Assembly: GCA_000165425.1 (NCBI GenBank)
Contig: CT868208.1
Location: 248,001-312,000 of the forward strand
DNA from: Paramecium tetraurelia
Lineage: Eukaryota
Length of the DNA stretch: 64,000 nt
Reading direction: 5' to 3'
A program made the position numbers and the translations under genes. Below are positions 23,549-63,753 of this stretch, piece after piece. Numbering within the stretch: the stretch's first letter is position 1; the number at the start of each line of letters is the position of its first letter. The notes beneath the pieces are model-generated. The model was not told where the DNA came from, ran no database searches, and saw only the letters and a program-made list of their open reading frames with translations.

Positions 23549-25114
23549 TCATAAAATCACTTCATCCTATTCTGTCTTTTTTTACTTCATTTAAAGTAAA
23601 ATGAAATCTGATCTTTTGTATGATGGTGCTGTTTCAATTTCTCTGAGTTTCAAAGGACCTTTTTTGATCAATAACTGTATAAAAGCAAAAAAATTACTTA
23701 TTCTTAATCTTCTGTTTCTTCTAATTGAGGAACATCAACAGGTTATTAGTATTCAGGAGGTAAGGAGCTTGAATCTCCACCAACGATGTGTATCTCCTCT
23801 TCTGATTCCTCTGTATGTTCAGGAGGTAATGAGCTTGAATCTCCACCTACAATAAGAGGCTCTTCTGGTTCATCTCTGTATTGAGGAGGTAATGAACTCT
23901 CGTCTGCACCCAAAATATGAGGTTCCTCTGGTTCGTCTCTATTTTAAGGAGGTAAGGAGTTCTTATCTCCACCAACTCTTATATGATCATTTCTTTCTTG
24001 CTAATTGATAATGTTAAATCATTACTGTCAAAGCTTCTTTTTCTTCATCGGTTGTTTTGTTGTCAATTTCTTTATCATATAATTCATATAATTATGAGAA
24101 AATAGCTAATTGTTTAAGTAACCTTTAATGTTCCTCAACATAATCATTGTAGGCTAGAACACCATCATTTTTTGCTACTTCAATAGCTCTGTCAATGTCT
24201 GTTACTCTTTCTCTGCATTATTGAGCACTGTATTATAAAGCGAGCAATTAATCACCTAAGTTTTCCTAATCACTTTAGAAAAATTTAATTTACTAATTGT
24301 TTTCCTAATTCAACAATCTTTTATTCAAAGAATTCATTTTCTTTGAGGATTCTTTACTTCCATTCAAGATAAGCTAATCCCACTCTGATCATATCAGCTT
24401 ATGCAACTGGAATATGAGAATTGATATGAGCCTCTAATTCATCCAAAACTACTAGGATTTCATTTCTAACTTCTTAGAATTTCTTCATTTCAATTGGACC
24501 CATATGTGTTTAAATCATATTAGGGTTTTCCTCTCTTTCAATTTCCATTGTTCTTGTTAATTCCAAAAATTCATATTTCTACTCCTTTATATCCTAAAGG
24601 AATGATAGGATATTTTTCATAGCTTATGATTTTTATGCATATGAGGTGCCTTCTGAAACTATTTTTTCAAGTTATTCTTTAACAAATACTGAGACTGTTA
24701 ATGAAATTTTATCATCTCTGACAGTTTCAACGAAGTTCAAAGATTGTCTACATTATAGATCTTCAATAGTTTGAATTCTATTTTTATTGACGTGAATTCT
24801 ATGTTCGATCCATGAAATTAAATCAGACATTTCTTAGATTTCTGTTTTTTTATTGATTACATTCTCATCTCTTCTATCACAATCAGCCTCTTGATCAGTC
24901 TTTGTTTATTTTAATGCCTAAATACTTGCTTGTTTCATCTTAATCATAATTTATGAATCAATACTTTTTATGTTAATACCCATTCAGCATCTAAAGTTAC
25001 AATTTGCTCATGGATATCATCCTTCAGTTCTAAAAGTAATTCTTGCACATGCTTAATATCATTATGTGCCAGAACAACACATGCCAAAAATGCAAAAAGC
25101 ACTATTTATTTCAT
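23549..25114 (-). CDS. secreted trichocyst-matrix/granule-lattice (TMP/Grl)-like precursor with a C-terminal repeat extension
   Basis: Signal peptide MKQIVLFAFLACVVLA. Two acidic coiled-coil halves with sparse Cys are separated by a linker, as in TMP/Grl precursors. Four short introns. Stop at 23549-23551. Confidence 0.65.
23750..23985 (-). repeat. four ~63-66 bp coding tandem repeats (xIVGGDxSSLPPxxxxEPEEP)
   Basis: HIRVGGDKNSLPPQNRDEPEEP / HILGADESSLPPQYRDEPEEP / LIVGGDSSSLPPEHTEESEEEI / HIVGGDSSSLPPEY. Confidence 0.9.
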
Positions 25115-31956: not shown

Positions 31957-34900
31957 ATGAGAACAAAACATCTAGTTTTATTAGGTGTTATCATAATGCA
32001 GGGTATTATATCTTCAAAAACTGGTTAGTTTGCTTTGTGCAAGCAGTGCACTATGATTTGACAACACTTTTGGATTAACAAAATGAACTTGACTGTGACA
32101 ATACTGATTTTGTTTAAATGCTTGAAGACTTTGATTCTTGGAGTGAAATAATAGAATTGTTACAAGGAGGGTAATTGGATGCAGAAATGAAGCAACTACA
32201 AGAGCTTTCTGATTTCACTAATGAAATGATATCAGGTAAATCATTTGACCAAAAAGTTAGCAAATCCAGATGATTTGATGGAAGATCAATAATACGATGA
32301 GTAGTTAGAGTAGATGGATGGGTAATTGTAGACAATTCAAAACTAATACAATGGTCCTCAAAGAAAATTCTTATTCGAATAAAGCAGACAAATTTCAGAC
32401 TAAATCAGAAGGGTGATTCAATCAAGTATTTTATACTATTAATGATTTTCATAGGATCCTTCGAATAAAAGAGATCATAATTGGCTATGTTATATGGATT
32501 GATTGAATATTTATTGAAACAAATTTCTAGAGTATAAAACCAATATTAATAAACAACATAACCTTAACCAAGAGCTCAACCCTAATAAGCTCAACCTTAA
32601 CCACAATAGAGAATAAAGGAATAAAAAGAAAGATTTATAGTCTAAAAAGATAAATGCAGTGATAGATAGATATAAAGAAAAGTGTCTAAATAGAGAGTAG
32701 TCCCTGGAAATTATAGATAAAATGATCATCCAGTGCCAGAAGAAGTAGGCTGTGACATCCCATATCCATAATAAAGATAACCTAAATGTGTTGTCGGTTC
32801 AGATATCGTTTTAACAAGTTCAATCTCTGCTGATTAACCAACCGTTTCAACAGAAGTTAAAAAATTAAAAGACGTTAACGAATATGGTTTTGGTTTTTGG
32901 ATGAGATTCTTAACATTATATCCAGAATAATTGTAAAATGGCTTAACTGATTAATCTTACTTTGTCGCTAAATTGACAAAGAACTAATAGGATGGAGATG
33001 ATAAGATTGGCGATAGATTATTAACCGTATTCTAAACTTAAGAATAATATATCTTCAGTGCTTAACACGATAAACCTGAAAGAAAAGAAGCCACAGCTGC
33101 TATAGTATTTGGAGATATCGAAGCAGTTTGGACATACGTTTATTACAGTTACTCAGCCTTTTCATAATAAGCTATCGGTTTCTACAAACAATCAAACAGT
33201 CAATTAGTTAAATAAGTCACATTGCCAGCATCTTAAGGAACTCCTTAGTATTTGAGATTTGTTTTGGGAGGTCAATATTTCAATTTCCCAGGATTCAATG
33301 GATAAATAAGCAGACCAGTCTTAGCAATTGGTTTTGGAACATATTTGATTAATGAATAAGAATTCTTGTAATATGCTATATCATGCAATCCTCAACCATA
33401 TGTTGCACCATAAAAATTGATTCCATATTAATTTGTAAGAGATTCCAAATATGTCGACATTGAAGATAACAATGCACCACCCACATAAGAATTTATTGAT
33501 TTGTTGTTACCAGATGAATATGCAGTTTAAGGTTGGTTCAAATGGGAGGAAACAGATTTGTAAGAGAACTGGCACACCATGTTCAGATTATCTAATACAC
33601 CCATTAGAAAATAATAAATCTTATTAGGTGAAAGAGTCTTGTCTGCTTGGTTAGGTAAACCAAAGGGAGGTTAAATCCATTTCTCAACATATTCATATGC
33701 TAACATGAAAGGATCTGGTAACCCTAATGCTCATCAATATGTCCAACATTAAGATCAACATTTACACTGGCATTTTGTTTACTTTGGATACAGCAGAGAT
33801 TAAAGAAAGGCATATGCTTAAGTCTTATTCAAACATGTTCATGCCAAATCTTTGAGTTTCGTCAATGTCAATCACTTTGTGTCACCAAAGCATTATTTCT
33901 ACTTTGGAAGAGAAAGACAATTCCCAGTCTACAGTGGATTCATGGCCTACCTTGAAGTATTCTTCTGCAAAGGATCTTACTTAACAAATGTTAAGCCAGC
34001 TTTGAGACCAGTACCAACACCACCACCCCCTAAAAAGAGATGTGTTGAAGGACCAAACAGAATCATCAATGCTAAATATGATAAAGGACCAGTTGTTCAT
34101 GTCGAATTGCACAAAGATGATTTGAAAGATACTACTTAATATGGTTATGGATTCTGGTTCAGATACACTGGTTTGGCAGGTGGATAATATGAAGGTGCAA
34201 GACCAGATTGGTCATTGATTGCTAGACTTACAAACAAGAAAGAAACACCAAAAGATATTAGAGATGGTTTATTAACTATTTTCTAAGGAAAAGTTGGTTT
34301 CTTCTACATCACAGCTAATAATAAGGCTAAGAAATTAGTTGAATTAGCTTAACCATTTGGAGATATTGAAGGAGTTTGGATTTACACCTATTTCAGTTAC
34401 ACTAGATATAAGGCCATTGCATTCTATTAAATTGAAAATTAAGCTCCAATCACCTTAGAAGCTAAAGTTACACATCCATGAATGGGAATAATTGTTATTC
34501 TAAGTTGGTGGAAAGGATCCATAAAATAGATACTATTCATTCAATGGTTAATTCCATAGACCAGTCTTAAGATTAGGATCAGGATCATTCTTTGATACAT
34601 TAGAAGAATACAATCCATTCTGTTTAAGTTGCAATCCTCAACCATAAAAGGATTGTTCAAGTAAAGGTTTGATTAGAGCAGTCTCAGCCAAGGCTTCATA
34701 ATTCAATGGAAATCCAGTTAATTCTGGTGACAGATTTGGAACAACTGAATAATACTCTGTTCAAGGATGGTTCAAATGGAATGGTAAGACATCTGGAAAA
34801 GATTAATTGTTATTCAGATTGACATCAACTCTAGCTGGTGAAGATGCTCTCAATTTTGATACACTCAGTTGTTACTTCGATACTAGAGATTAAACTCTTA

Positions 34901-35538
34901 ACTTCTACACATATACCTACACTGATTAATTAGGGTAATTAATATATATTTATGAAATATTAGATCTGGAAACCCAGAAGTTAGATAGATTGTTGAAGGA
35001 AAAACCTTTGTCAAAGATTGGTTCCATATTTACTTTGCTTATTCTAGAAAGAGTAGATAAGCTGATGTCATTGTTGAACATTCATAAGGAAAGGGAGCTT
35101 TGTCATTCAAGAATGTCAACCATTATGTTGCTCCATCACTTATTCTTTACTATGGAAAAGATCAATTGACAGATGCTTTCGAAGGATTTATTCAAGGATT
35201 GAATCTTTTCGCATGCGACATTACTTATCAACCAACTCCTAAGCCAGTCGAAGATTGCACACCAATGAAAGAGTATTAAATTCTGTTATTTTAATAGTCC
35301 AATCTGTTTAGCTGGTGATTAATATGAAAATGTTTCATTGACCAATATTGAAAACGTTGTTCAAGAATTAGAGAAAAGAAAGTAATTGATGTAAGATAAG
35401 TAATTTGTTTTACCAACTACTTAATGCTTCTGTTTCCCATAATAAGGAAAGAAAGTTCTTCCATAAAGATAAGAAGGTTTGCTTGAAATCTACGATGATG
35501 ATGAGGAACCTTAATAATAAGATGTCGTTGAAGTATGA
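31957..35538 (+). CDS. secreted ConA/LamG-like repeat protein, resembling ciliate extrusome (granule tip) proteins; one +1 frameshift at 34479
   Basis: Signal peptide MRTKHLVLLGVIIMQVCFVQA and a helical pro-like region. Four alternating beta-rich repeats begin EYGFGFWMRF / EYAVQGWFKW / QYGYGFWFRY / QYSVQGWFKW and contain WxxxYFxYS motifs. Five short introns. TGA at 35536-35538. Confidence 0.7.
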
Positions 35539-37353: not shown

Positions 37354-40030
37354 ATGTAAAGCAGAGTAAAAAAAAGAGATGATTCAAACAAAGAGATTAT
37401 GAATGTATTAATTGCAGAAGATGATTTGTTCTAAAGTACATGCATTTTTTACACTTTTATAGGGGTTGCTATAGTGGATTTATTATAATTATGTGGTTTT
37501 TAAGTTATTGCTTGCAAAAATGGATTAGAAGCAAGAGATGAACTTTTAAAAGGTGAAAATGAGTTTGATCTAATCCTTCTCGATTTATTGATGCCAGAAA
37601 TGGGAGGACTTGACTTATTAAAAATCATAAAAAGGTATTTAAAAATGATTACGTAGTATTGATAAATTAAAGGAAACTCCAGTGATTATGATGAGTGGAG
37701 ATGGGGAAACTGATATTGTGGCTGCATGTTTAGGAGCTGGAGCATTGAACTATTTAGTTAAGCCAGTAAACTTTAAGTAATTTTAAAGTCTGCAAGAATT
37801 AGTAAAAAAGAAACCTAAAAACAGAAATGTAATTTATTATTCTAAGTAGAACAATTCGAATGAAAAAGGTTTTTATGAAGTTGTTAGAGATTTGGGAAGA
37901 GGAGCTTTCGGCTGTGTTTAATTAGTAAGAAAAAGTACTGATTAAGAATTATATGCTATGAAGGTAAAATTTAAATGAATTTAGGTTATTCCAACTTCAT
38001 TTATGAATGAATAAGAAAAGAAAAATGCTGAGAATGAAGTGAGTTTGCTAAGAGTTCTAACTGCTCCAACAATCATTAAATATTATGAAAGCTTTGCAGA
38101 AAATGATTCATTAAATATCATTATGGAATATGCTGAGGGAGGATCATTAAATGAAAAAATCTCAGAGCATATTAGAGTTGGTTAAAAAATCCCCAAAGAT
38201 TAAATATTAGCTTGGATGGCATAATTAGTAATAGCAATTCATTTTATGCATTCTAAAAATATTCTTCATAGAGATATCAAAACCTAGAATATGTTTTTGA
38301 ATAAAGGTTTAAATTTAAATATATATTATTAGAATAAGTTATTAAATTGGGAGACTTTGGTATTTCCAAGGCATTAGGAACTCATGGAAATTTTGCATAA
38401 ACCTTTCTAGGAACTCCATATTTTATGCCTCCAGAGGTCATTAGAGGTGAACCATATGGAAAAAAAGCAGATATTTGGGCATTAGGTTGCGCTTTGTATG
38501 AATTGGTTATGTTAAAACGACCCTTTTAACATGATGTGATGCAAATTGTATTTGACATGATACAGAACAAACCTTATGATATGGATCCATCTGTAGACTC
38601 AGATCTTTAATAACTCATAGAAAAAACATTACAAAAGGACCCTAATAAAAGACCATTTGTAGAGGACTTGGCTAACATTCCTTGCATTGAGGAAAAAATC
38701 AACTAATTTTATATAGATCATCCAAATGAAAGTAAGGATATGATCTATTCTTAGCTAATTAAATATTTTTCAAAAAGTATTAACTTGGGTAAAATAATGA
38801 CGATGGAGGTAACTCTTAGAATCCAGAAGATAATTGTCTCATGGTTGTGGCTGCAATGATTGATAAAGTTTAACTTAGAAAAATAACTGTAGGGGTTGTA
38901 AATTAAATGTAAGTATAATTATATAAAATTAGTGAATAGATTGGAGTTTTAGGATCAGATATTCTTAGTTATCTTAAATAAAATTTTGATAAAAAAAATG
39001 AAACTGAATTACAGCAATTTGTATCAACTCTTCTTGAATAACATCTAATTATCCCACTCGACAATAATAATCAATAACTGATATCGACTTCTTATTATTC
39101 TTTTCCAATGTTCTTAGAATACATACCTGCAAATAATTATTAAGTATTTACCAGCAATTCTCAAGATATGATGTTTATTCTAAAAAAACTCATTAGGAAA
39201 TTTAAGGAATTCTAAAGAAAGATTACAGAAAAGAAATAACTAAGTTTTGAAGCATTTAATAAATACTTTAATGACTTTTTCTAACTAGTTCATCAAACAT
39301 TGGAACTCCAAAAAGCTACAATGATTGACTATTCTCCTTAAAAGAAACTTGCAGTGTATGTTAATATTTATTAATTAATGAGACTACATCAGTAAATTAT
39401 TTTCATATTGTAGATCATTATAATAGTATTATGTTCAAAACTTGCAAAAAAAGAAAGAATTAATTAATTAACCTTGCAACTTACTATAATAGATAATTAG
39501 TACTGTAATAGTTCCTCATCCCCTTTAATCAGAATTTGCATACTGTATTGGTGGTTAGATTACTACTTTAGGATAAATAAAGCATGGGATCTTGAGAGGA
39601 AACAAAAACACTGAGAATACTCATTTGCTTCCTAAGGATGATCCCAGAATCTTATAATAAGAAATAAAAGGAATTTTCATTTTATTTATTGAAGAATATT
39701 AGGATTAATAATCATAAATTACATAAGAATTGATCTTCTTAGATGAAGGGTAAGTTACTTAATACATCTATAAATAAATATAATAGTTTATTTCTAAAAA
39801 TGTAATACTTGATTTAGCTGAATAAGAGATAGTGATACACCCCTTATTACAAAGTAAATTATTTGTATATTTTAGAATACATGAGTGATTTTGGATCTTA
39901 AAGAAAGTTAATTGAATGGTTATTAGAAAATATTGAAGAGAGATAAGACAGTAAAAAGATTCTCAATTAATTTGATAATAAGGAGTTCTTCATTTTGTTT
40001 AAGGATCCCAATGTATTAACAAAGTATTGA
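37354..40030 (+). CDS. receiver domain - NEK/NIMA-related kinase - DEP - DUF547 protein, copy 1
   Basis: [38 protein letters not shown]. Kinase: [86 protein letters not shown]547: [31 protein letters not shown]. Nine short introns. Confidence 0.88.
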
Positions 40031-40733
40031 TAGATTATTACATATGTTAAGGCTAATTGCCCTATATATTTTATTAAAATTTGTGCTAATTAATCTTATC
40101 GAGTTTTGCTTATTGAAAATAAAAGAAAATACTCATGTATATAAAAAATGGAAGCCTGTCTTATTTAATTATCTTTGTCATTTTACTATGTAATTTTCTC
40201 AGGAAATTATAAAAATGGATGATTTTAAAAATTAGAATATTGCAATAATCAATATTTAAATATTTCGATAATGTAATGGGATATGTGCTTTTAATTTTTA
40301 TTTATTAATTCATTAAATTACATTTTATTTTAAAAAACCCTAGTAACACATATAATTATAATTTGACTCTATTATAAGGTTATAAGGTTTGGAAATCTGT
40401 GAGAAATTATTGAGGAATTTGTTGGAAATAAGATCAAATAACATGAATGATAGGCAACGGAGATGAGAATTAAGAATAGCGAATCAATTTGAAGGCTAAG
40501 AAAATTTATGTTAATAATCTAAAATTAATTTTTTAGTTTATATTAAAAATTTGTTTAAATCCTTGTATAAAATTTAAACATCATAAATGCTTGAATATTT
40601 TATATATATAATATAGTTTTTGTATTGAGATGATCTCAATTGTAATAAAATTCTGACAGTTTATTAAAACAGAAAAATGAATGATTTAAAAGTATATTCT
40701 AGTCTTGAATTGAATTAATTATTAAATAATTTT

Positions 40734-43417
40734 ATGTAAAGGGTGAAAAGAGATGAACAAGCTAAAGAAGTTATAAATGTGCTCCTAGCCGAAGATGCTC
40801 CCATCTAAAGTCTTAATTGCAATTTATCTTATAGGGATTGCATTAATTGATTTATTACAATTATGCAATTATCAAGTAGTGGCATGCGAAACTGGTATTT
40901 AAGCAAGGGATGAACTTCTGAAAACGGAAAATGAATTTGATTTGATACTGTTGGATTTAGGTCTTCCCGAAATGACCGGTTTAGAACTTTTGCAAATTAT
41001 AAAAGCGTAAATTTTTTATATGAGAATCAAGTATTGACAAATTGAAAGACGTTCCAGTGATAATGATGAGTGGTGATGATGAGACAGAAACAGTGGCTGC
41101 TTGTTTAAATGCAGGAGCAGAAGATTATATGGTCAAACCTGTCAATTTTAAAAAACTTTAAGGGCTTTAAACATTCGTAAAAAAAAAGCCCAAGTAACGA
41201 AATGTATAAAAATTATCTAAACTTTTCTTAGAACAACTAAAACGAAAAAGGATATTATACAATAGTTAGAAATATAGGCAAAGGAGCCTCTGGTTCTGTT
41301 GAATTAGTAAGAAAAAGTACTGATTAAGAATTATATGCTATGAAGGTAAAATTTCAATTAATTTAGGTTATTCCAACCTTTTTCATGAATGAATAGGAAA
41401 GAAAAAATGCTGAAAATGAAGTGAGTTTGCTAAGAGTCCTAACTGCTCCAACAATCATTAAATATTATGAAAGTTTTACTGAAAATGAATCTTTAAATAT
41501 AATCATGGAATATGCTGAGGGAGGATCTCTTACAGAAAAAATATCTGAATATTCAAGATATGGAAGTTAAGTGCCCAAGGATCAAATATTAGCTTGGATG
41601 GCATAATTAGTAGTAGCAATTCATTTTATGCATTCTAAAAATATTCTTCATAGAGATATTAAAACTTAGAATATGTTTTTGAATAAAGGTTTAAATTTAA
41701 ATATATATTATTAGAATAAGTTATTAAATTGGGAGACTTTGGTATTTCAAAGGCATTAGGAACTCATGCCAATTTCGCATAAACCTTCCTAGGAACACCT
41801 TATTTTATGTCACCCGAGGTCATTAGAGGTGAACCATATGGGAAAAAATCTGACATATGGGCCTTAGGTTGCGCTTTGTATGAATTGGTTATGTTAAAAC
41901 GACCCTTTTAACATGATAATATTTAAATTATTTTCGAAATGATACAGAATAAACCTTACGATATGGATCCATCAGTTGACTTAGATCTTCAATAACTAAT
42001 AGAAAAAACACTATAGAAGGATCCCAATAATAGGCCTACTGTTGAAGATTTAGCAGCAATCCCCTGCATTGAAGAAAAAATCAATTAATTTTATAAGGAT
42101 CATCCAAATGAGAGTACTTAATTATCGATTTTTCCTAGCAAATTTAATCTCGGTCAAAAGATTGCAATTAGGCCCATAATTACAGCCAGAAACAACAGAA
42201 TAAGTTTAAGATGAAAATTATATTGCTATTTCTGCTGATATGATAGAGAAAATTTAATTAAGAAAAGTAGTATATGGATTCGTCAATTAAATGTATTCTA
42301 TCTTTTTAAGTTTAGTGAATATATAGGTGTTTTAGGTTAAGATATTTTAAATTATCTTTAAAAAGCTTGCAAAAATTAGTTAGAAATTTAATAAGTTAGT
42401 TAATAGTTATTAGAATCCTAACTTATCATACCCTTAGAATCCCAAAAGGATATAACACCTAATCAATATTATTCTTTCCCAATTTTCCTTTAATTTATAG
42501 CAGCAAATAATTATTAAAAATATACTGGAAGTTCTATCGATCTTATGGAAATCTCCGAAAAACTAATTAAAAAATTCAGAGAATTCCAAAAGAAATTTGT
42601 AGATAAGAATACCATAAAGGAAGAAATTTTAGAATAAGGGTTTAAGGAGTACTTTCAGTTAGTTCAAGAAACAACTTAATTACAAAAATCTACAATTATT
42701 GATTACTCTTAAGAAAAGCAATTAGCAGCTTATGTGAATTTATTTTAAATAATGAGATTTCATCAGTAAAATTTAATATTTATATGTTTAGATCATTAAA
42801 TTAATATTATGTTAATAAGCTCCAGTAAAAAGGAGTAATAGAAGAACCTAAATCAATCTTAAAAACCATTATAGGTTCTATTTTACCTCCGCATCCAAAA
42901 ATAGTAGATTTTGCTTATTCAATAAACAAATTAATTACTACTTTGCCTTAAATTAAACATGGAATATTGAGAAAAAATAAACCTGCTCCAAATTTTCATT
43001 CCTTACCAAATAATGATCCAAGAATCCTAACTGTAGATACTAGGGGAGTAATCTTTATTTTTACTGATGAATACTAAGATGCTAATGTTAGTTTAATTAC
43101 TGAACTGCAATTCTTAGATGAAAAATCAGTTTAATAGTTTATTCAAAATCATATTAAATAGTTTATACTGCGAAATGTCTGCCTTGACATTATTGAATAG
43201 GAAATTATAATACATCCTTTATGTTAAAGTATTAAGCCTAAACTAATTTTTAGCTTATCTAAGTGATTTTGGGTCTGAGAAATAGTTGTTTGAATGGTTA
43301 TTAGTAAGAATGGATGATGGGTACAATAAGGAAAAACTCTTACATTAGTATGATTAGTAGGATTTTTATATAAGATTCAAAAATCCTAACGAGTAGAAAA
43401 AGTAACCAAAAAATTGA
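40734..43417 (+). CDS. receiver domain - NEK/NIMA-related kinase - DEP - DUF547 protein, copy 2 (tandem paralog)
   Basis: Same architecture and the same nine intron positions as copy 1. [31 protein letters not shown]. Kinase: [26 protein letters not shown]. Also IKHGILRKN and NDPRI. TGA at 43415-43417. Confidence 0.88.
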
Positions 43418-43579: not shown

Positions 43580-46500
43580 TCACAACTTTAAAAATGAAGC
43601 ATGAATAAAGTTATTTCTATATATCAAACTTAATCTTCGGCCAGCCTCTTAAGGATTCAATACCAATAATTATCTAATGTATGGAATCTTTAATTCTACC
43701 TAATTAACATCCAATTTTCTGGATATAGAACTAGTTTAACTAAAGATTCTAACTTGAAATACATCGTTATATAAATATATAGCTATGAAAAGCATTTTAT
43801 GCTTCATGAATGCTCCTTTATAAAGTAGTTAATATTTGATATATTTTAAATCATTAAATTTATTGACTTTCATACCTTCTTGATTACTAGGTATACATTA
43901 GTCAATCTAATAATGTAAATATAAAGAATGGCACTATTTATAGACTTGAACCTACTTGCCTCTTATATTTAAGGGAACATCTATAGTTTTGCAAGTCTCA
44001 TAAGAATGAATTCGCAGTCTTATAGGCTGCCATCTAAAAGATTGTTAAATTTCAAGGCATGGAATATAACACAAGAAATTACAAGTTCTATCATTGCAAT
44101 ATACTAATTCTGTTACAACAGTTTTGAAATTGTCCAATATAATTAAATTTTCATTTATGTTCATCTACTTAATTATTTCCATCCATAACTTTTTCTCAAA
44201 TACACTATTAGATTTAGATAATAACAATTTATCATATAGCCAGCATTATTTATTTATGTCATCCCCTTAAGATTCATCCATTGATTGATTAAGTTGTAAT
44301 GTTGATTATCTCTAAATAACACTTAAACCTGAGAAATTAGAAGTAACAGATCTCTTAAGAACCTTCTTTGATTCATTAATCTATTTAATATAAAGTTTTG
44401 TTCTATTTCTAAAAGTGTCAGGTGCCTTAATAATTAGGGAATAAATCTTATGAATTTCATTCAACTTCCAAGGTCTGAAGAATTAATCTATAACCTCAAA
44501 GGGTTATTCTGGAAATATTGAATCTAAAAAGTATTAGTTCATGATTAAAAAATCTGATCTGTGAATTGTAAAGTAAAATCTTCTACAAGTATTTTAGTTG
44601 TAGAGATATATTTAAAAATAGTTTTTGATCAAAGAGACTATTATTATAAAGTAGTGTTTATCAATTCTTCTCACCTATTTATATACTACTCTTGAATGGG
44701 ATTTTTATCCTATTACCAGATTATTGTCGTGATATTAATTTGATAATAGAAATTGCTTACGTATTTAATTTTGTGTGATAGGCATTAATTCTAATTTGGA
44801 ATAAGTCTAGGTGGCTTTTAGAACGAATTACTTACATAAAGTATAGATCAATTTAATAGGATCTTCTTAATTAATTTAATATATAAAGAGATGAGACTTG
44901 CTCTTGTTTCCAGTTGGCATTATTCTCATTAACATTATATTAGAATATATCTTTGCAGAGACAAAGACACAACCAATTGATTTAATTTTTGTTTAAATAA
45001 AATATTGTTTCGCTTAAGCAAACTTGTCTTGCATAAATAGAAATCTTGGATCCTTCGATTAAGAAGAACGATTCTCATTTTGATAGAGTTGGAACCCCAC
45101 TAGAGTTTTTTTTAGTTTCATTTTATAATTTAAAATGTGCTAACGCATACTTCTTTCAATTTGGAACAAATGAGCCCATTTTTCTGTTTATTCAGATTTA
45201 AGGAAAAAGGATATCTTTTTAGAGCTGTTATAATATACTAATAGATGTGCTTTTGCTTAAGCATTTCTAAAGTCTTGATGTATTTTCCTTTCATCTGATA
45301 AAATACTCAATTTAGCACCTATCGGTTTGTAAATGGATTAATTTTTTCGAATGAGAAATACTGAATTGAAATGAGGAAACAACGTAATATCCTTTGCATT
45401 AATCGTTTGTTCATTTGTTCTAGAGATATGTTTATTCATATCTTCATGAGACATAATTAGCCTATAGGGAAATTTGGGTTTCCTTGGTTGCTCACGGTCT
45501 TGCAACATAAACTTACCATTTTCATTTCTTAGGAGATAACATTTGGGCAAGTAATTTTGATAAAAAACATAACTATTATTATTTAAGACTCCAAGTATAA
45601 ACACAATATCAATAAGGGGTTGTCTTTTATATTCTTCTATTAATTCAACATCATCTGATATTTGGCTATTACTTACCTCTGATACTTCTTTGAGCCCTTC
45701 TTCAACAAATTCCAAGGATTGTATTATATGATATAGTCTCTTATTTACTCTATAGACTTTATTTAACTTTTTTTAATATGTGTTATCAGTCTCATTTTAT
45801 TTGATTTAAATTCTACAATTTGTAATTTATAACTTTTGTTATAATATATTTTACAATTCTATTAAATCAATCATGTATCCTGTCCTGCCAACAGAGAAAT
45901 TTAAAAAATTTTTCAATTATATGTCAAGCTCATCTTCCCAAAGATCTTTACCAAATACTTATTTTAATTGTAATTTATTGGACAGGGTTAGATAATAAAA
46001 TTACTTATCAATTTTAACTATTTATATTAAAATTAAGTAATCTTCTGTGTAAATCGGTTTATATTCCAACTAATCAAATTTATTTGTTGATAATTCTTGT
46101 CTAAAATGATAATGAGACTCAGTTAAAATCTTTTTGATAATTGGAGCTGGGGCAGGATAGTAATCAACAGGAGGAGTATTAAGTTTGAATTCTGGAAATA
46201 ATCTTTGCAAATAATCCTGTGTTTCTAAAGTAAATATATCTATTAATTAAGGAGGAGCCTCCTATGGACCTAAGTTTTTCCAGTTTGACTTGAGAGTATG
46301 TTTTAATAAAGGTTAAATGATAGGAGTTTCAGGCCCCAGAATTAATTATCGAGATTGTAATTCATTACCTATTATAATGCCAGTATCTTTCAAAGATACA
46401 TATGGGCTATCTCTTTAATTAAGTACCTGAGATTCACTATCTTAACTTGGAGACACTGCCTCTCTAATGGTTCTTTATTTTCTGTCTTAAGCAATAAACA

Positions 46501-49033
46501 AATGCTTATCTTTATTCCTTTTTCGATGTCTCTTTTTACTTAAAATTGGTTTTCTTTCTTGATTTAAAATTTCATAATCTTGATATTGAAAATATTAATT
46601 AATTCTTTCTAATTTTTTCTTATAAATAGAATTGTTATGTTATTGAATCGAAACCTGATGATTCTGTGAAACTGACTTAAATTTATAACCATTCATGGTC
46701 TTAATGTAACTTTTTCTTTTAATTAAAAAAAGGACTTTAGACAAGAGTTATTGATAATATTAAATATCTTCTTATTGTTATATTCTTCGTTTTTTGGTTT
46801 GATCATTGTTAACATTTTACCTTTTTTGATCTAGGACCGTTGTATTGCCCTTACTTACTCTATAGAGTGTTTACTCCTTCCTGTTCTCGATCCACTCACT
46901 CAATAAATCTTCTTGAGTCAGATATATAGTTAGTAATTAATCAAACAAATTCATCATGTCATCATAAGCTTTTATTTCTCTATAATGTTCAAAAAGTGTA
47001 TCTATAATAAACCTAAATTAAATCTTTCTTGTATGATTTGAAATTTCAATAGATCCAATCATTTGAAAGGCTGATTACCGTTTAAGATTAAAGAGATTAT
47101 TTTTTATCTGTTCCAAATTAATTTGATGATACTCCTCATTTTTTGATGATTTTTATAAAAATTATCCTCTAATTCTAGGATTTTCAAGAATCCATTTGGA
47201 TGTTTCAAAATCTGTGAATAATTTATCATAAAAATGAATGGGATACCATTCCATTGTATCTGCCGATTACAATAACTTATATATGATTTTATTGGCTTCA
47301 TTTTCAAGAAGTTTTTACTCCACAAGATCTTAAAAAGTATTGGATCTGCTCAAAAATTGTTATTATTTATTGTTTATCATAACTCTATTAGGTGAATGCT
47401 GATGTTTCCGTTCTAAGAACTCATTTTTTTGTTTTTTAGAAACTTGAACATAGGTTTTAAGCTTCCCTTTAATCTTCTCAACAGCCTCTAACAATATATC
47501 CATAGTATGAGTTTCCAAATATTTAGCAATAATTGAATCATGAGGAGAGTATGTTTTTATTGGTTCTTCACTTTCAGATGATACAATTTTGTTTTCCTCT
47601 TACTTAGTGATATCTTCATCATTATCGTTTGTTAGAGTACTTATTATTGGCTTTGTGAAGAGGGTAGTTGTTTAAATTTCAGGAGCTAAAATTTTCCTTT
47701 AGGAAATTCTCTCAATTTTTTAAGTACTAGGATAGCCAGGTAGTTTCTTGATATCTACTTTTGTCGTTATGTTATTTCTAGAAGGTTCTCTAATTTAGAG
47801 TCGAGATGGAATAGTTAGTTGAACTTAGTAAGTTGAGGTAGTTTAATTAGAAATTTCCTATTTTACAAATTCGACCCGCTTAAATTATTTGACTTCATAT
47901 TATGGCCGAGCAATTAGTAATTCATTAATGACATTGGGAATTTGAGTATCTTCTAGATTCTTTAGAGTGCTTTGGTCTAAAGAAAGTATTTTAGTATGAA
48001 ACCTCTCAGTATTTTTTTTGGATAAAATTGAGACACCCTAAGTAGGACTAGTTAGCTTAGAAGTGCATTAAGAACTTGTAGGTCTTTTCGATTGATTCTT
48101 AATAATGAATAAAGACTATATGGGAGCATCTTTACTTAGAAGAGTAGGTTTGCTAATAGATGAAGGTGTGGTTAGTTTATCTGCTTTATCTACTTTTTTA
48201 GTAAGCTTTGGAGCTCTAGCTGAGTCTACATCAATAATATAATTGTTATGTGCAGTTACTTTAGGTCGAAAAGATTAGAGAATTTCTTCACGAGCTGTTA
48301 TTTAAATTGGTTAGGGTTGCTCTTCCTCTTCCTCATCCAGGCTTTGGATTTCAATATTTACAGATATCTTATCATTTAATATTTCATACAATCGTTTATA
48401 TTCTTGAGTTCTCTTCTCATTCATCCCAAGTAATTCTTCAGATAGATGATAGCATTAAAAATATAATTATGCTGCTTCCCTGTCTTTATTCTAATTATGA
48501 TAAATTTTGGCTTAGAATGAGAGTGCTTGTAATAAAATTAATTAAAACTTTTCAGGGAACTGCTTATAGAGATAAAAAGTCAAACCAATTTCCTACATTA
48601 GGTTCAGCAACTTCTCATTCAAGAGCACAATATTTTAAATTTTGCTAAGTCGACCATTCTCTATGATATGATTCAAGATTTGGATTTATGTCATAATAAT
48701 GCTTCTTTGATTTGTTTTTTACAAGGGAAGCAATTGTATTAGTAGATTGTAGGCAGATTTATTCTTATGCCAAAATTCATGATACTCTGCATACAACATG
48801 TAAGTAGAATATTTTACATTTAGTAACTCCTCCATATCTAATTTAGAGGCCAATTAAATGGCTCTTTAAAAGTATTTTTCACCCTACTGATTCTGTAATA
48901 TTTATTATTGACCTGTTTGATTTAGAGCCTCTATTAGAGTCACACATGATTGAATTGTATTTGGAGCATTTTTGCCAAACTCAGTAAGAGCATCCAAATA
49001 AGAACGCTCAAGTTGAAGGAGTGACAATTTCAT
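43580..49033 (-). CDS. large hypothetical protein (~1800 aa) with N-terminal TPR-like helices, a low-complexity middle and an IQ-like motif
   Basis: ATG at 49033 (MKLSLLQLERSYLDALTEFG..GEKYFQRAIQLA), an S/T/P-rich region, and AVEKIKGKLKTYVQ at ~47450-47490. The supplied ORF 45338..45715 is part of it. Stop at 43580-43582. I did not verify continuity at every position. Confidence 0.6.
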
Positions 49034-50340
49034 AAATATTTTTATTATAAAATTCAATGTATATTTAATTGCCAATAATTTATCTCCCTTTCAAGTTTAC
49101 TACTGTTAAATTGCCTTTTAACTAAATGCAAAGTAATGAATTAGCAAGAATAATTAAACATGCATTTAAAGAGAAATTTATAGTAATTTCACTTAAAATT
49201 GATGTAATAATGCAAATACTAGCATTCAAAAAATTATAAATTATAAAGGCAATTTCATAAAAATCAAACAAAAATAGGATAATTCATTACTATTCTTTCT
49301 CTTTTATTAATTAATGTTCAATGTCTTAATAAAGTAATCTTGAAATTTCATTAGTTAGTTTTGCTTGGCTAATTCAGTATATTTTCCTTTCCACATATCA
49401 AGTTTCTATGTTTAATGATTTTATTATAAAAACTTCATTTTCTACATTCTGTGGAGTTTAACATTAATGAAATAAATTATTTCAGTTTTTTTATCAGAAT
49501 CGTTTACAGCAGAAAAATTATAAAGATAATATACAGTACTATTTTTATTATTACGTTTCAACTACATATTTAGGTATTTTTCCTTTATAAATACGAATAT
49601 GGTTAAAGCAATTGAATTTAAAATTGGCCTACTCCTATAATTTGAATTATTCTACTAATTTAGAATAATTTTTTTATAAATTTTGAATGCAATTTGAATG
49701 CTTCTAAATCATATAAATGTTTTTATTAAATAACTCTTAATGGAAAGAAAATCTTTATTGATTTTAAATTTAATATTTAGATTAGAAAAAGGAAAAAGGA
49801 AGAACAATAATAAATCTCTTAGTATTTAGTCTATTTATTAATATTCACTATTTTTAATATTCTAATATATTTTTATTTTATTTATTTAATTTTTTTAGAT
49901 TTAGAATTGCTAATAATTTTATCTAGAATAATTATTGTGCAGCAGATATTTATTTTTAAATTATTATAAATTTGAGTTGTTATCTTTTTAAATGTATATT
50001 TATGATGTCGAATTGCAAATTATAATTGATCACAATATATTTTTTTACTGAAGATAACTATTTGGAAGTATACAATTTTCAATTTATTTCCCTAACGCAT
50101 TTATGTTAAGCCATTAAAAAATTAAATCTCATTAAGAAACCTTTATTTCCATAATTTTCTATAACATTTAGATGATTAATTAATTGAATTCATATTATTC
50201 TATGGAAACAAATGATATGTAATTTATCATTGAAACTATAACGGTCCAACCCGAAAGAAACCTATAATTATATCTCACAACTATAACTATTACGTGGAAT
50301 GTGTGAGTTAAACATTATTAATTTAGTAATATAAAAATTA

Positions 50341-53718: not shown

Positions 53719-55553
53719 ATGGGAGCAACATGTTGCAAGTCAAATTTGCAAACTTAAGATGGTATTAATAATTATCGATTGGCTTTAATAGAACTTTCTG
53801 TTCAATCAGCAGCTTTCGGAGATAATGACTAGGGATCTTAAAAGAGGGTTGTTAAGTAAACAACTGCTAGCAAACGTTAAGCATATATTCCAGCACAGAC
53901 ATTCGGGTTAGGATTGAAACAAAAACTTATCCGATGATGGAAAGGAAGTGTATGAGGAACCAAAGAAGGTTTCGATGAAAGTCTCAAAGGAATTGGAATA
54001 ATTATTGGAGCGATAGAATTCTGACACCGATAGAAAGAAAATTCTCGAATAGCAATCAGGATAGAGTATAAATAACATGAGTTATCTTAGAAATGGATCA
54101 AAAGTTGCACATAAATGTTGATGTTTTTGTATAATTGAAGAAAGGTCAAATCTCAGATCATTACATCACTGGTAAGGTATTGGGAGAAGGTGCCTTCGGA
54201 AAAGTGTGGAAAGTGACACACAAGAAGACTAAATTAGATCGTGCCATGAAATAATTAAAGAAGACTTCTATATTGAAGGAAGACAAAGAAAAATTATTTT
54301 CGGAAATGAATATACTAAAGAATTTAGACCACCCACACATTGTAAAATTGTATGAATTATTCGAAGATGACAAGAATTACTATCTGGTAACCGAGTAAGT
54401 ACTAAATTCATTGAGGATAGGTATTGTTCTGGGGGAGAACTATTTGATCGAATCAAGAGCTTGAACTTCTTTAGCGAAAAGAAGGCTGCAGAACTAATGA
54501 GACAAATCCTCAGTGCTGTTTGGTATTGTCACAACCAGAAGATCGTACACCGAGATCTAAAACCAGAGAACCTACTCTTCGTATCCGATTCCCCTGATGC
54601 TGATCTTAAAGTAATCGACTTTGGAACTTCTAGAAAATTTGAAAATGGAAAGAGAATGACTAAGAGATTAGGCACTCCCTATTACATTGCACCTGAAGTC
54701 CTATTGGAGAATTACAATGAAAAATGCGATGTCTGGTCCTGTGGCATTATTCTGTACATTTTATTATGTGGATATCCTCCTTTCTCTGGTCGAAGAAAAT
54801 CTGAGATTCTCAAGAGAGTTAAAGCAGCTCAATTAAAATTTGACCATGAAGATTGGGCTCACATTAGTTAGGATGCTCAAAATCTTATCAAGAATATGCT
54901 CAATCCCAACCCAGCTAAACGTTTAAGTGCTGAAGAAGCCTACAATGACAAATGGATTTAAAATAATGCACCTTCCAATGTCATTAATTAAAGAGCACTA
55001 CAAAATCTATAGTAATTTCATGCCAAAAGCAAATTCAAATAGGCAGTTCTGACCTTTATGGCTACTCAAATCATTACTCAATAAGAATAGGATGAATTAA
55101 ATAAGACTTTTAAAGCTATTGATAAAAATGGAGATGGTAAATTATCAAGATAAGAGTTAATTGATGGTTATACTCAAGTTACTAATAATTAAGAATTAGC
55201 AATCATCTAAGTTGATCACATTATGGAGTTGGTTGATATCAATCGTTCAGGGGAAGTTGATTTCACTGGTAATACTATTCTCTATTTTTAGAATTTCTGA
55301 TTGCTGCTATGAATTAAGAAAAGTTTCTGTCAGTTCAAAAAATGGAATAGGCATTCAAAGTTATTGATTTGGATGGTGATAATTATATTTCCAAAGCAGA
55401 ATTACAAAATGTTATGGGTGATATTGATGATGAGGTATTTAAGTGTAATTTAACCAGATTTGGATACAAATTTTAAAGGAATGCGATAATGATAATGATG
55501 GCAAAATTTCATTAGAAGAATTCTCATCTTTGCTCCAATCTAAAGTTTTATGA
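53719..55553 (+). CDS. calcium-dependent protein kinase (CDPK)
   Basis: MGATCC acylation motif; GEGAFG, HRDLKPEN, DFG and GTPYYIAPE; junction region and EF-hands DKNGDG, DINRSG, DLDGDN and DNDNDG. TGA at 55551-55553. Confidence 0.95.
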
Positions 55554-56885: not shown

Positions 56886-58476
56886 TCATGCAGGTAATGC
56901 TATTTAATAATGTCCTGGGCATAATAACAAAAAGATTTTTTCTACCTTTACTCCTTCATTATTTTTAGGTAGATATTCCTTCCTTTCATAGCTAGAATTT
57001 TATAAATCTATGTAATACAGGATAATATGCCTAAGATTAGTTTAAAGAAAATGATTACAATTTAAAATGTTCAACAATTGTCCTTATCAACGTTTCATTA
57101 TTGTTACACTCCTATTCCCAAGTTAAGAGATCTTTCGTAATATTTAAATCTCCAAGCTCTTTAAACTCTTGACTATTATGAAAGATATGAGCAAAGTATC
57201 TTCTAAAAACTAAAATAGTGAGTAAGTAAAATAAATAATCTGGATCCCTCATTTATTTTAATAATTCTTCTTTTGTTTTTAATTGCTAAAATTACCAAAT
57301 AAATTCTTAAACTATTTTCTTATTCTCTTTAATTTCAATATTTTAATATTTTATTTTTGCAGAGAGTTGTTCAACCTCATTAATAAACTAATTTTTTCTC
57401 TGTTCATCTCTTAGAAGAATTGATAAATATTAATATAAGAAAGATGTATAAAAACAATTTCCATCTCCTCTAATGTTGATATGGCCAATAATTTCTTTCT
57501 TAAGTTATTTAATCTACTTTGAAAATTTGTTCTGGTTTCTTCCAAAATATTACTTTATTGTACCCTAAATATTCTCGACTTCACCAATAAAATATTTAAA
57601 TTAATTCCCAACTTATCTACCTTTATAGGATTTGTTAGCAATTTGGTTAAGCAAATCTACATCATCTTCTTTTAAGTATTAGTATCTTTCTATAAATTCA
57701 GGTACATTTACTACATTTTCTACATTTTAGTCACCAATTATTTCTTATTATTCCATTTAAGCAGGTTCTTCTTGTTACTATTGTTGATCCAATTTGTTCG
57801 AAGAAGAATCTTCTAATTAAACTTCTACATTAACTTTTACTATTTCCTCTTATTATTATTCTTAAACTTTTACTATTTCTTCTTATTGTTATTCTTAAAC
57901 CTCTACATTGACTTTTACTATTTCCTCTTATTATTATTCTTAAATTTCTTATTTCTATTGGTTTATACTATTTTATTATGATGTTTCCACTTATCGTTCT
58001 GCTTAATAATTTTCTTCTTTCACTTGATTCACCTAAGGAATAAATTGTTGTTTTAAGTCTATCTGTAAAATTTTAGATTCGTCATTATTCTCTTAAATAT
58101 GATTCTTATTTTAGTGATCCTAATTTTAGTCGGACTCATTTGTCTATTATTACTCTTATTATTTTGACTTACTATATTATGATTATTGTTTATCTTGGAA
58201 TTTTTTATTTAACAATTATTAATATTTCTAAGGCTTCTATTTTTAAATATCTTCCTCTACCAAAGTTCCCTTTTTTATCTCAGAATTAGTAATCTTTTTT
58301 TTGTTACTTTTAAGTCTATATAATCTATATAATATATTCAAAATAAATATTAGGACATCAATATGTTTCTAGAGAAAGAATTTTATTATTTTGAAGGGGA
58401 ATCCAAAAACCACCTCTAATATGCTTTTTTTCTGCCTCAATCTAATAGGATTTTAGTTTGAGGTTGTGTCTTTCAT
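56886..58476 (-). CDS. otubain-like deubiquitinase (peptidase C65) with a long Q/E-rich N-terminal extension
   Basis: IRGDGNCFYTSF (catalytic Cys) and LLCPGHYQIA (catalytic His). Stop at 56886-56888. Start codon inferred. Confidence 0.82.
57822..57942 (-). repeat. three coding repeats QEQQQEEIVKV(NVEV)
   Basis: 33/45-bp units such as acttttactatttcctcttattattattcttaa are repeated three times on the plus strand. Confidence 0.85.
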
Positions 58477-58971
58477 AGTGAATATTATATTAATTAATGA
58501 CGATATTTTTTTAATTACAAATATAAATAAATAGAATTACAATTATGTAATAAAAATTAATTGATGTAATATATGAGATTAATTTATAAATAGTTTGTAA
58601 TTTATTTTAAGTAATATATTTTAATATTTATAAAAATCTCAAATTAGATAATTTATTAATACCCTAAAGAATTCTATTTTAAAGTATCTCAATTCATTAG
58701 TAATTACAACATTTCAATTATTTAAATGAATATGTTAATTAAATATAATGTTTTTTACCTAATCACTTTTAAAGAAATTGGAATAGTTTTGCATTCACCT
58801 AGATACTACAATAATTCAAATATATTAAATATCATCATGATTTTGGTATTATTTAACTTCACATTCCATTAAAATAATCATAGTTTGTTACCGACTTTAT
58901 CGAATGTAACAAATAATCATATATAGGATGATTGGCAATATTTAAATAGTTTATAAATATCATTTGATATA

Positions 58972-59681: not shown

Positions 59682-60933
59682 TCAAATTTTTTTCTTTCCA
59701 CCAGATTTTTAAGTTTATTCATTCTTTTTATTGGCTTTTCCTTTTGCTTTGCTGTTGTTTGGATGAATTATTTTTGTAGTTTTACCAAAGAAATTCTCCA
59801 ATCTACTTTAGAAACCAGTAGTATCCTTTTTAGCAATCCTTTTAAGTCCATTATCGATTCTTGATTCTGCAAACCCTTTTTCTTCAACTAGGAACTTTTT
59901 AAGATTCTCAACATCTGGTTTGTTCCAAGTTAACTATGATTAAGGTAAATCAAAATTTTACTTAAATTTCTTCTCCCTTTTAAACTAATGGGGTTATAAA
60001 TAATTCTCGACTGTCTTAATACAGAAATTTTGTAGGTACTGTATATTTAGGATTTTATTTATTTTTTTCTCTTTCTGCATTGACTTTTTAAACATGCTCC
60101 AAAATTCCCTCTATGCTTTTGAACTCTTTTATTAACTTATAAGCTGTTCCAGGACCAATGCCTTCAATCTTTTCAGTATAATCGCATCCACACTAAAATA
60201 TTAATAAAACAACATTTACTAAAATGCATAGATCTACGAATTACTCGTATGTTATTTCTAACTCTTTCATCATATCATCATAAATTATTTCATAAATTGG
60301 TTCCTTCTTTGTATTGAACCCTCTTAATAACACTGGTGTTCTGAAAGTCAAAGCATCCATATCCTCAGTGGCTGTAGCATATATCTTTCCTGCTCTACAC
60401 AATTCAGCACATTAAGCTTCTGCTTCACAGGGTGCTATAATAACAGGACATCCCATTAATTTGAGCATTTTGATTGCATCTTCTTTCATGACACTAGATA
60501 TAGTGGTGGTCCTTTGATGTTGAAGCAAAGCCTATTGCATATCACCCTGTTCAAGAGCCAATTCAGTTTTGACTTAAGCCTCCTCTTTTAATTTCTTTCT
60601 TCTTGCCAACTCACCACTTTTTAATAAAGGTGGTTTTCCATCAAATACCCAAACAGGTTTAATTCCATTCTCAAGAAATTGCAATGTTCTATTAAATAAC
60701 CCAACCAGATGTCCAGTTCGGTTACCATCCTTATCTGTCAACTCTATAATTTGTGTTTATCCCGCAGATTGTGTTTAAATTAAAAACTAATACATAGCCA
60801 TAGATGCATCACAACCGATAGTTCTATATGTAAATGATTGTTATTACCTGCCTGCAAAATAGTCGAGCATCAAAGTCCTAAAACAATTGGGTGCTTTTTC
60901 TTTCAGAAATTGCATAAGTTAATGAATTCCCAT
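59682..60933 (-). CDS. FEN1: flap endonuclease 1
   Basis: [73 protein letters not shown] and the PIP box QSRLENFF. Confidence 0.97.
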
Positions 60934-61004
60934 ATTAATTAATTAATTAATAAAAGCGCCAAAGTTTAATGTGATTTTATATATATATATTTTTGGAATG
61001 ATCA

Positions 61005-61906
61005 TCATTTTTATGTGTCAACAAAGACATAATTCTTATTTAATTTTTCAATATCCTTCTCCAATTAGGCTAACTCCTTCTCACATTGCTCTTTCCTAAA
61101 AGGGAATATAGATTAATGAGTACTTTCTCTTCAATCCAACAGTATCAATCATCCTAATATGTGTAATTGATTAGTATTCTTTGTTAACTGATTCCCATTT
61201 CTTTTTTAATCCCTTTTTTAATTGTTCGACTTCTTCTTGAGTCATCAAATATTTTTGTTTATCCATTTCTTCAGCCTCACTTATGTGCATATTTCTAATA
61301 ATTTCATATTCACTTGAAATGCTTTATTATATTTTTGTAAGATAGTCAGGTACCTTACCAAAGTCCTTTTTCTCAGTCCATGGTTTCTCATCTACTATTT
61401 GCTTTGGAGCACTTAGAATATTTTCAACTGCATTCGTCACTATGTAATTTTTATTAGATTTAAGGCCATGAATAGGCTTTTCATCTTTTTTAGGTACTGG
61501 AGGTCTGACTGAAGGAGGATATTTATATTGTTTGACTATTTATAATTACAAAACATTACCTTCAGGCAGTTGGTTTGATCCCATTGTTCCAGTATTTTTC
61601 AATCTGAACATAGTAGAATCAGGTTTGTATGATCCTATAAAATTTCAAAGTGAAATTACCCTTAGGTCTTCCGAGAGAGTTCGACTATCCCTTATGAGAG
61701 TGTGGTCCCCTAACTAAATCAAATTCTCCGTTGATATTATTAACCTGAATAAATAATACAACTACTTTAGGTCGACTAGTTGTATGGTTATTGAATGTGC
61801 TGCCAGTTGGTGTCAATCCACTTGGATATGCCGATCTATACATCGGTTCTTTAGGAGGAGGTACATATTCCTTGGGAATCAAGTTATATATGCTTTCCTG
61901 TTACAT
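61005..61906 (-). CDS. ENKUR: enkurin (axonemal microtubule inner protein)
   Basis: MQQESIYNLIPKEYVPPPKEPMYRS, KNYIVTNAVENI, KDFGKVPDYL, LKKKWESVNKEYQ and C-terminal EKELAQLEKDIEKLNKNYVFVD. Confidence 0.9.
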
Positions 61907-63445: not shown

Positions 63446-63753
63446 AATTATATTAATTATTAAAAAGATAGAAGCAAAAATTATATAATTATCACTCAGA
63501 ATACCTCCTCAACAGATCATTAATTCTGTAATACAGAACATCATATTTGGCTATAAAATCATCATAAAAATTAAATAAATTAATGTAAAATTCTATTTAA
63601 TACCCCTTATTCATTTTCCCACAAATTATGGTATTCATTCACATAATAAATCCATTTTCATTACATAATATCATTAAATGACTGGAAAAGTACAGTACTC
63701 AACTAACCTTTGTAAAAGATTATTTAATTAGTTTTAAATTTTTATTTATAATA

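Follow-up and report, generated by a model that had tools for sequence, protein, structure and literature searches.

A candidate response regulator built on a NEK kinase: tandem REC-NEK-DEP-DUF547 genes of Paramecium tetraurelia and their relatives in alveolates and oomycetes

Response regulators either serve as transcription factors or work via mitogen-activated protein kinase (MAPK), cAMP or Raf-like kinase pathways (PMC6324907). Ciliates have 44-83 or more histidine kinases (PMC1557398; Stentor preprint 10.1101/168187), with 83 histidine kinases and 39 NIMA-related kinases (NRKs) counted in one survey (PMC1557398). In Tetrahymena, all but one of 70 histidine kinases are hybrid, and apicomplexans and Symbiodinium have none (PMC6324907). 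Downstream two-component signaling in oomycetes is poorly known, as stated in a study of P. sojae (PMC10072465). In known NEKs the kinase domain is N-terminal, with rare exceptions, not named, that all come from Tetrahymena (PMC2031824). Here we describe two tandem genes, g1 (GSPATT00011220001) and g2 (GSPATT00011221001), in a 64,000-nucleotide stretch of the Paramecium tetraurelia genome (contig CT868208.1, positions 248,001 to 312,000, forward strand; hereafter the window), in which the kinase lies behind a receiver domain (REC). Each gene encodes one polypeptide with an intact receiver and an intact NEK-type Ser/Thr kinase followed by DEP and DUF547 domains; both are expressed, and they belong to one kinase lineage present in alveolates and oomycetes. 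With a probability of about 0.5, we propose that these proteins are eukaryotic response regulators in which a phosphorylated aspartate gates the protein's own NEK kinase.

Genes in this AT-rich ciliate DNA were translated with code 6 and the models were built by coordinates. Both models contain nine GT-AG introns of 21-28 nt at common positions (Table 1), and the spliced genes encode open proteins that are 66% identical. The g2 model matches the annotated protein (P0009) letter for letter. The annotated g1 protein has 838 residues compared to 822 in our model, and the 16-residue surplus equals two in-frame introns (27 and 21 nt); g1 orthologs in P. primaurelia, P. pentaurelia, P. octaurelia and P. 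sonneborni have 822-823 residues. The public annotation appears to keep the stop-free introns at 37436-37462 and 37829-37849, both of which are spliced in the sister-species models. Stranded poly(A) reads confirmed that g1 and g2 are both real, expressed genes: the sense strand of each was covered in two of two raw-read runs, and the stretch 40194-40635, between the genes, had zero reads. Loose read or contig ends matched 5 of the 18 predicted splices; the two contig runs added one splice only and were otherwise uninformative. The reads are 58 nt long, and no single one reaches from REC into the kinase. Read cover is continuous and one open frame of g1 (37649-37978) carries the second half of the receiver together with the start of the kinase, from which we infer that the two domains lie on a single transcript.

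The domain order that had been read from the letters of both genes was borne out by profile searches. In full-length Paramecium proteins, Pfam scored Response_reg at 78-82 bits (cut-off 30.2) and Pkinase at 224-231 bits. DUF547 reached 36.4 bits in a g1 ortholog (P0003), passing the cut-off of 27, and 25.4 bits in g2, which misses it. DEP scored 18.5 bits in P0003, under its cut-off of 32.7, and was unreported for g2, so in g1 and g2 this domain is confirmed only via relatives, in which it reaches 62 bits. Consistent with this assignment, the family profile matched the DEP domains of DEPTOR (E 3.5e-7) and P-Rex1, and ESM Atlas clusters carried DEP+DUF547 at 0.91 and 0.90. The domains can also be seen in automatic annotation. 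Pfam detected neither a HisKA/HATPase nor a Glutaredoxin domain on full-length REC-NEK proteins. In a PDB profile search, the 60 best of 234 matches included no solved relative of DUF547.

We compared individual residues with those of 110 proteins, out of 421 collected, that have a full receiver ahead of the kinase; the set is redundant, with 28 left below 70% receiver identity. Both Paramecium receivers have the complete pocket that had been claimed for them, with the acidic pair, aspartate, serine, aromatic switch and Lys-Pro located at E22-D23, D68, S98, Y117 and K120-P121 in g1 and at E20-D21, D66, S96, Y115 and K118-P119 in g2. Ala22 of g2 was considered as a loss from the acidic pair and ruled out: E20-D21 is present, and alanine occupies that third position in 7 of the 110. 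The kinase carries HRD-I-K-x-Q-N, DFG and an activation-loop threonine, and the catalytic set of g2 (K178, E196, HRD 273-275, N280, DFG 293-295) is kept in 103-110 of the 110 relatives. The aromatic residue of the G-loop is usually absent, with Phe in 6 of 110. As predicted, the kinase is of the NEK type. Its closest solved relative is NEK1 (E 1.4e-58), then NEK7 and NEK2, and these three account for the top 16 PDB sequences (202-157 bits), ahead of PLK2 at 143. Because the kinase begins at residue 148-150, behind the receiver, the protein is by its sequence an atypical NEK, probably outside the named subfamilies. It is not a glutaredoxin.

The family extends across alveolates and oomycetes, more widely than the original prediction had it. 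Full-length searches showed REC, kinase and DUF547 together, in many cases with DEP, in P. bursaria, in three species of Tetrahymena, in two EukProt proteins (P0021, P0133) and in many transcript-sized records. The Tetrahymena ortholog is EAR86994, and a single Tetrahymena cluster was recovered. A profile search over 1.84 billion representatives, of which the best 150 matches were scanned with our own domain profiles and 42 with Pfam, added oomycete members. Chromera velia Cvel_4985 belongs to the family as well, with a weak, interrupted DUF547 and no DEP match. A Phytophthora boehmeriae query recovered the layout in Phytophthora, Nothophytophthora, Peronospora, Bremia, Hyaloperonospora, Albugo and Pythium, and also in Globisporangium, Lagenidium, Aphanomyces, Saprolegnia, Achlya and Thraustotheca. 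Among the matches listed, in which 22 clusters were looked up for names, no carrier was identified by name as a diatom, brown alga, dinoflagellate, apicomplexan or rhizarian. In favor of a relay, the named carriers come from lineages with histidine kinases (PMC6324907, PMC3019232). In an IQ-TREE analysis of 36 sequences, 17 chosen family kinases fell on one side of a branch with support of 97/91. The family formed its own branch against 16 other NEK-like kinases, a comparison set that left out NEK2, 4 and 11. NEK-DEP-DUF547 proteins lacking REC are found in Tetraselmis and Telonema, so the suggestion that REC-NEK had replaced a glutaredoxin module is unsupported. Adding three REC-less outsiders to the family branch was not rejected (p-AU 0.32), and a single origin of all NEK-DEP-DUF547 kinases is neither shown nor rejected by this test. 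FastTree on 103 sequences reproduced the split of the family from other kinases (0.84), placing Telonema with the family and Tetraselmis among other NEKs. The simplest reading of these trees would be vertical descent from an alveolate-stramenopile ancestor. In Cyanophora paradoxa, one EukProt protein (P0224) has a different kinase followed by REC-REC-DUF547, apparently a second, independent combination.

Conservation of the receiver supports a phosphorelay output. The phospho-accepting Asp and the Lys-Pro are present in 110 of 110 proteins, and the Ser/Thr and Tyr/Phe positions in 109 each. The kinase Lys and Glu are likewise invariant (110/110), with the HRD and DFG aspartates in 109 and the activation-loop Thr in 108; because the set was picked by a receiver profile, six relatives with degenerate receivers are left out of these counts. 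Ciliates, Chromera and oomycetes alike retain all five canonical phosphorylation residues. A receiver tree set the 34 family receivers, together with four from Cyanophora and P0258, apart from 22 receivers of Paramecium hybrid histidine kinases (bootstrap 99), which argues against a stray fragment of a ciliate sensor kinase as the source of this receiver. Of the 34 family proteins, 30 allowed the spacing between receiver and kinase to be measured, and in 27 of these the receiver Lys-Pro and the kinase G-loop lie 35-40 residues apart. The idea of a phosphorelay output gains from the invariant phospho-site and from the separation of these receivers from those of the hybrid kinases.

In the mechanism we favor, a sensor histidine kinase would pass a phosphoryl group, via a histidine phosphotransfer (Hpt) domain or directly, to Asp66 of g2 or Asp68 of g1. 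The phosphorylated receiver would change shape and, lying ~15 residues from the kinase N-lobe, would switch kinase activity, with relief of inhibition guessed as the direction at about 60:40. Ordinary phosphorylation of the activation loop at Thr309 would come next, and DEP-DUF547 may serve as an address module that brings the kinase to a membrane or to a partner. One specific lever was rejected. In NEK7, Tyr97 mediates a 'Tyr-down' autoinhibition; the family has Tyr211 at this position in Paramecium and Phe or Ser in several relatives, so it would not work family-wide.

Several observations weigh against gating of the kinase by its receiver. Six family members (P0230, P0246, P0247, P0248, P0262 and P0266) have degenerate receivers, and the Nyctotherus cluster (P0153), nested within the family, begins at the kinase and has no receiver; the kinase can therefore persist without the switch. 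On the proposed mechanism, these members would be natural loss-of-switch variants. The linker is longer, at 44-68 residues, in 3 of the 30 proteins measured. The best solved match of the oomycete receiver, the plant response regulator ARR1 of Arabidopsis (E 3.6e-17), counts in favor of a response regulator, but its lead is narrow, with a bacterial hybrid kinase receiver at 1.4e-16, and in the Atlas the g2 receiver lies closest to bacterial response regulators. Finally, a phosphate donor was sought in the P. tetraurelia genome with searches that introns and code 6 weaken. The genome has at least 126 HisKA matches, a number that in itself speaks for the proposed mechanism. By coordinates, 27 of the 126 loci adjoin receiver matches; scanning of the other 99 revealed in 98 a downstream receiver whose end lies no more than about 40 residues from a stop, and one could not be read through. 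All 125 readable loci are thus hybrid, and none encodes a histidine kinase lacking REC. Similarly, each of the 30 top receiver loci examined proved to be the C-terminal receiver of a hybrid kinase. Pfam PF01627 gave 0 Hpt candidates over the genome, and a search with an Hpt motif gave 6 matches compared to 2 in a reversed control, none in an Hpt-like frame; both searches are weak. The donor in Paramecium could be an Hpt that escaped detection or a hybrid kinase working in trans, or there may be none. In oomycetes the relay is complete on paper, since histidine kinases there bear a fused Hpt (PMC3019232, PMC6324907). The original prediction of a His-Asp phosphorelay switching a NEK is strengthened at the predicted phospho-site, an invariant residue; the searches of this genome found no donor. 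A bolder version, which we consider doubtful, would make REC-NEK-DEP-DUF547 an ancient protein from the alveolate-stramenopile ancestor and the main output of the histidine kinases in these lineages, with Asp phosphorylation gating the Ser/Thr kinase in cis and more than 120 Paramecium hybrid sensors converging on three such proteins without a recognizable Hpt.

Other functions for the receiver would account for part of the same evidence. The relay could phosphorylate the receiver and thereby control dimerization, location, partner binding or stability, with catalysis set separately via the activation loop. The invariant pocket fits this equally well, as does the activation-loop Thr in 108 of 110, and DEP is a proposed membrane-targeting module (PMC13621322); linker length also varies in some members. 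However, the receiver sits directly ahead of the kinase at a near-fixed spacing and far from DEP in the sequence, and in Paramecium it is DEP that has eroded more. We regard this alternative as possible but would not expect it. A second proposal concerns output and is compatible with other mechanisms: the protein could be mainly a ciliary or basal-body NEK that ties sensing to cilia length or swimming, a role the original prediction had raised. NEKs control how long cilia grow in Tetrahymena and Chlamydomonas (PMC2031824), and a hybrid histidine kinase of P. sojae is required for zoospore chemotaxis (PMC10072465). By contrast, Hyaloperonospora brassicae, two Peronospora species and Bremia have retained the gene, receiver intact. 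These downy mildews are not known to have flagellate stages, and retention of the gene in species lacking zoospores makes a ciliary role doubtful. H. arabidopsidis, without zoospores, has only three NEKs, along with four histidine kinases, and values for the P. infestans ortholog range only from 0.78 to 1.31 across three expression columns (PMC3019232). Overall this proposal has lost ground, and we hold it as tentative.

Less probable, and in our view unlikely, is a receiver that acts without relay input, at least in ciliates; it could have a structural or docking role, work as a phosphate sink, or be the target of a small-molecule donor. The failure to find an Hpt or a REC-less histidine kinase in P. 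tetraurelia, albeit by weak searches, and the members with lost or degenerate receivers are in line with this. Pseudo-receivers usually lose the Asp, however, and here all five canonical residues are kept in ciliates, Chromera and oomycetes, the last of which have histidine kinases with their own Hpt. That REC and kinase are separate genes joined by annotation is very improbable: no 58-nt read bridges them, but the g1 frame spans both, read cover is continuous, and the same fusion has been predicted independently in many species, including in a transcript-derived open reading frame marked complete. Gating of the NEK by its own receiver is the reading we prefer.

The history of the Paramecium copies bears on which domains have been held constant. 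Each of two exon searches of the genome returned three gene copies. The third copy lies on contig C236, with 92% identity to g2 and both neighboring genes in common; no g1 copy adjoins it, and the contig is therefore interpreted as a duplicate of this region that lost g1. In favor of a working receiver, this is the best-conserved domain between g2 and the duplicate, with 119 of 120 residues identical even though 27% of the shared-residue codons differ; DEP is 88% identical and DUF547 83%. Four read variants in g2, between 41038 and 41134, make up roughly one third to one half of the depth, and the two that were compared (41038 and 41050) have the letters of the C236 duplicate, which suggests that the duplicate is also expressed. 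Orthologs of g1 and g2 have adjacent accession numbers in five species, suggesting that the tandem pair predates the aurelia radiation. Codons for shared residues differ between g1 and g2 by only 25% in the kinase region, compared to 43-50% in REC, DEP and DUF547 and to 40% between g2 and the C236 duplicate. An 82-nt block that includes intron 5 is identical in the two genes. The identical block and intron and the low synonymous difference, alongside freely diverging REC, DEP and DUF547, indicate that gene conversion has probably occurred between the tandem kinase regions. A genome-wide Pfam search for DUF547 found nothing and missed g1 and g2 themselves, making it uninformative on further copies.

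The coordinates of these features and of other genes in the window are collected in Table 1. Three further observations were made nearby. A large plus-strand gene at 32301-35166 has repeated, aromatic-rich units of ~200 residues and no Pfam match. A minus-strand frame of 1836 residues at 43580-49090 has a faint TPR match alone and is conserved on the C236 contig. A 63-nt tandem repeat at 23750-23976 has 3.6 copies with 75% matches.

Table 1 Features of the window, in window positions
Feature	Position	Strand	Remarks
Gene g1, GSPATT00011220001	37354..40030	+	10 exons, 822 aa, REC-NEK-DEP-DUF547
g1 introns	37436-62, 37635-56, 37829-49, 37964-84, 38307-32, 38732-54, 38909-32, 39392-413, 39854-75	+	
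g1 receiver (aa 15-134, three exons)	37396..37804	+	predicted phospho-acceptor Asp68, codon 37582-37584
g1 NEK-type Ser/Thr kinase (aa 150-404)	37871..38682	+	catalytic residues intact
g1 DEP (aa 453-530)	38850..39107	+	diverged, under Pfam cut-off
g1 DUF547 region (aa 590-795)	39285..39946	+	
Gene g2, GSPATT00011221001	40734..43417	+	10 exons, 819 aa, layout as g1
g2 introns	40810-34, 41007-31, 41204-31, 41346-66, 41689-714, 42114-38, 42293-315, 42766-91, 43229-53	+	
g2 receiver (aa 13-132)	40770..41179	+	predicted phospho-acceptor Asp66, codon 40954-40956
g2 NEK-type kinase (aa 148-402)	41253..42064	+	activation-loop Thr309
g2 DEP (aa 451-525)	42234..42481	+	family profile and Atlas only
g2 DUF547 region (aa 586-789)	42662..43324	+	
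82-nt block, intron 5 included	38285..38366, identical to 41667-41748	+	probable gene conversion between g1 and g2 kinase regions
Calcium-dependent kinase	54371-55297	+	
Otubain-like peptidase	56989-58638	-	
XPG/FEN1-type nuclease	59953-61017	-	
CTNNBL1 homolog	61952-63508	-	

Our literature searches turned up no account of the four-domain protein and none of these gene identifiers; Bemm 2009 (the Paramecium kinome) and Wloga 2006 (Tetrahymena NRKs) could mention it. In the main text of the Stentor kinome preprint (10.1101/168187), as far as available, neither 'receiver' nor 'DUF' occurs, and a listing in its Table 3 or supplements is possible. A Phytophthora infestans protein of 897 residues, PITG_03934, is classed as OTHER/NEK with Pfam ResponseReg in Table S1 of PMC3019232, and its visible sequence is close to that of P0327, a four-domain family member. 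It stands there as a table row: in the available portion of that source DEP and DUF547 are unlisted, there is no discussion, ciliate link or function, and the protein is outside the six domains called novel. As far as our searches reach, REC-NEK has thus been tabulated once, in this 2010 supplementary table, and no functional study was found; the expectation that no such protein had been characterized holds, but the combination itself was already on record. The family offers one concrete, conserved candidate output for ciliate and oomycete histidine kinases, with a single Asp to mutate and two tractable ciliates, and REC-NEK may be the route by which many environmental sensor kinases signal inside the cell. 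If the receiver gates the kinase directly, a His-Asp relay would be wired straight into a NEK and would give a handle on the uncharacterized DEP-DUF547 module; if not, the family would still be an undescribed NEK lineage common to alveolates and oomycetes.

Among described systems, each shares one part of this architecture. The most similar NIMA-related kinases are NEK1/3/5 and NEK8/9, and the likeness lies in the kinase domain, including HRD-I-K-x-Q-N, DFG and the loop Thr. Plant class IV glutaredoxins (GRX-DEP-DUF547) have the same C-terminal DEP-DUF547 pair behind a glutaredoxin domain that is not in g1 or g2. They are uncharacterized and known from genome data alone (PMC13621322), and therefore lend REC-NEK no function. 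Plant ARR1 is, by a small margin over bacterial receivers, the best solved match of the oomycete receiver. The output of ARR1 is DNA binding. Dictyostelium RegA belongs to the response regulators whose receiver, as the last step of a His-Asp relay, controls an enzyme or a kinase cascade (PMC6324907, PMC4758236). The output of RegA is a phosphodiesterase, however, with no NEK and no DEP-DUF547. Two yeast systems are of this kind as well: Ssk1 acts on a separate MAP3K, Ssk2, and Rim15 belongs to a different kinase group and has a C-terminal receiver; neither has a NEK or DEP-DUF547, whereas g1 and g2 carry the receiver ahead of a NEK kinase and both in front of the DEP-DUF547 pair.

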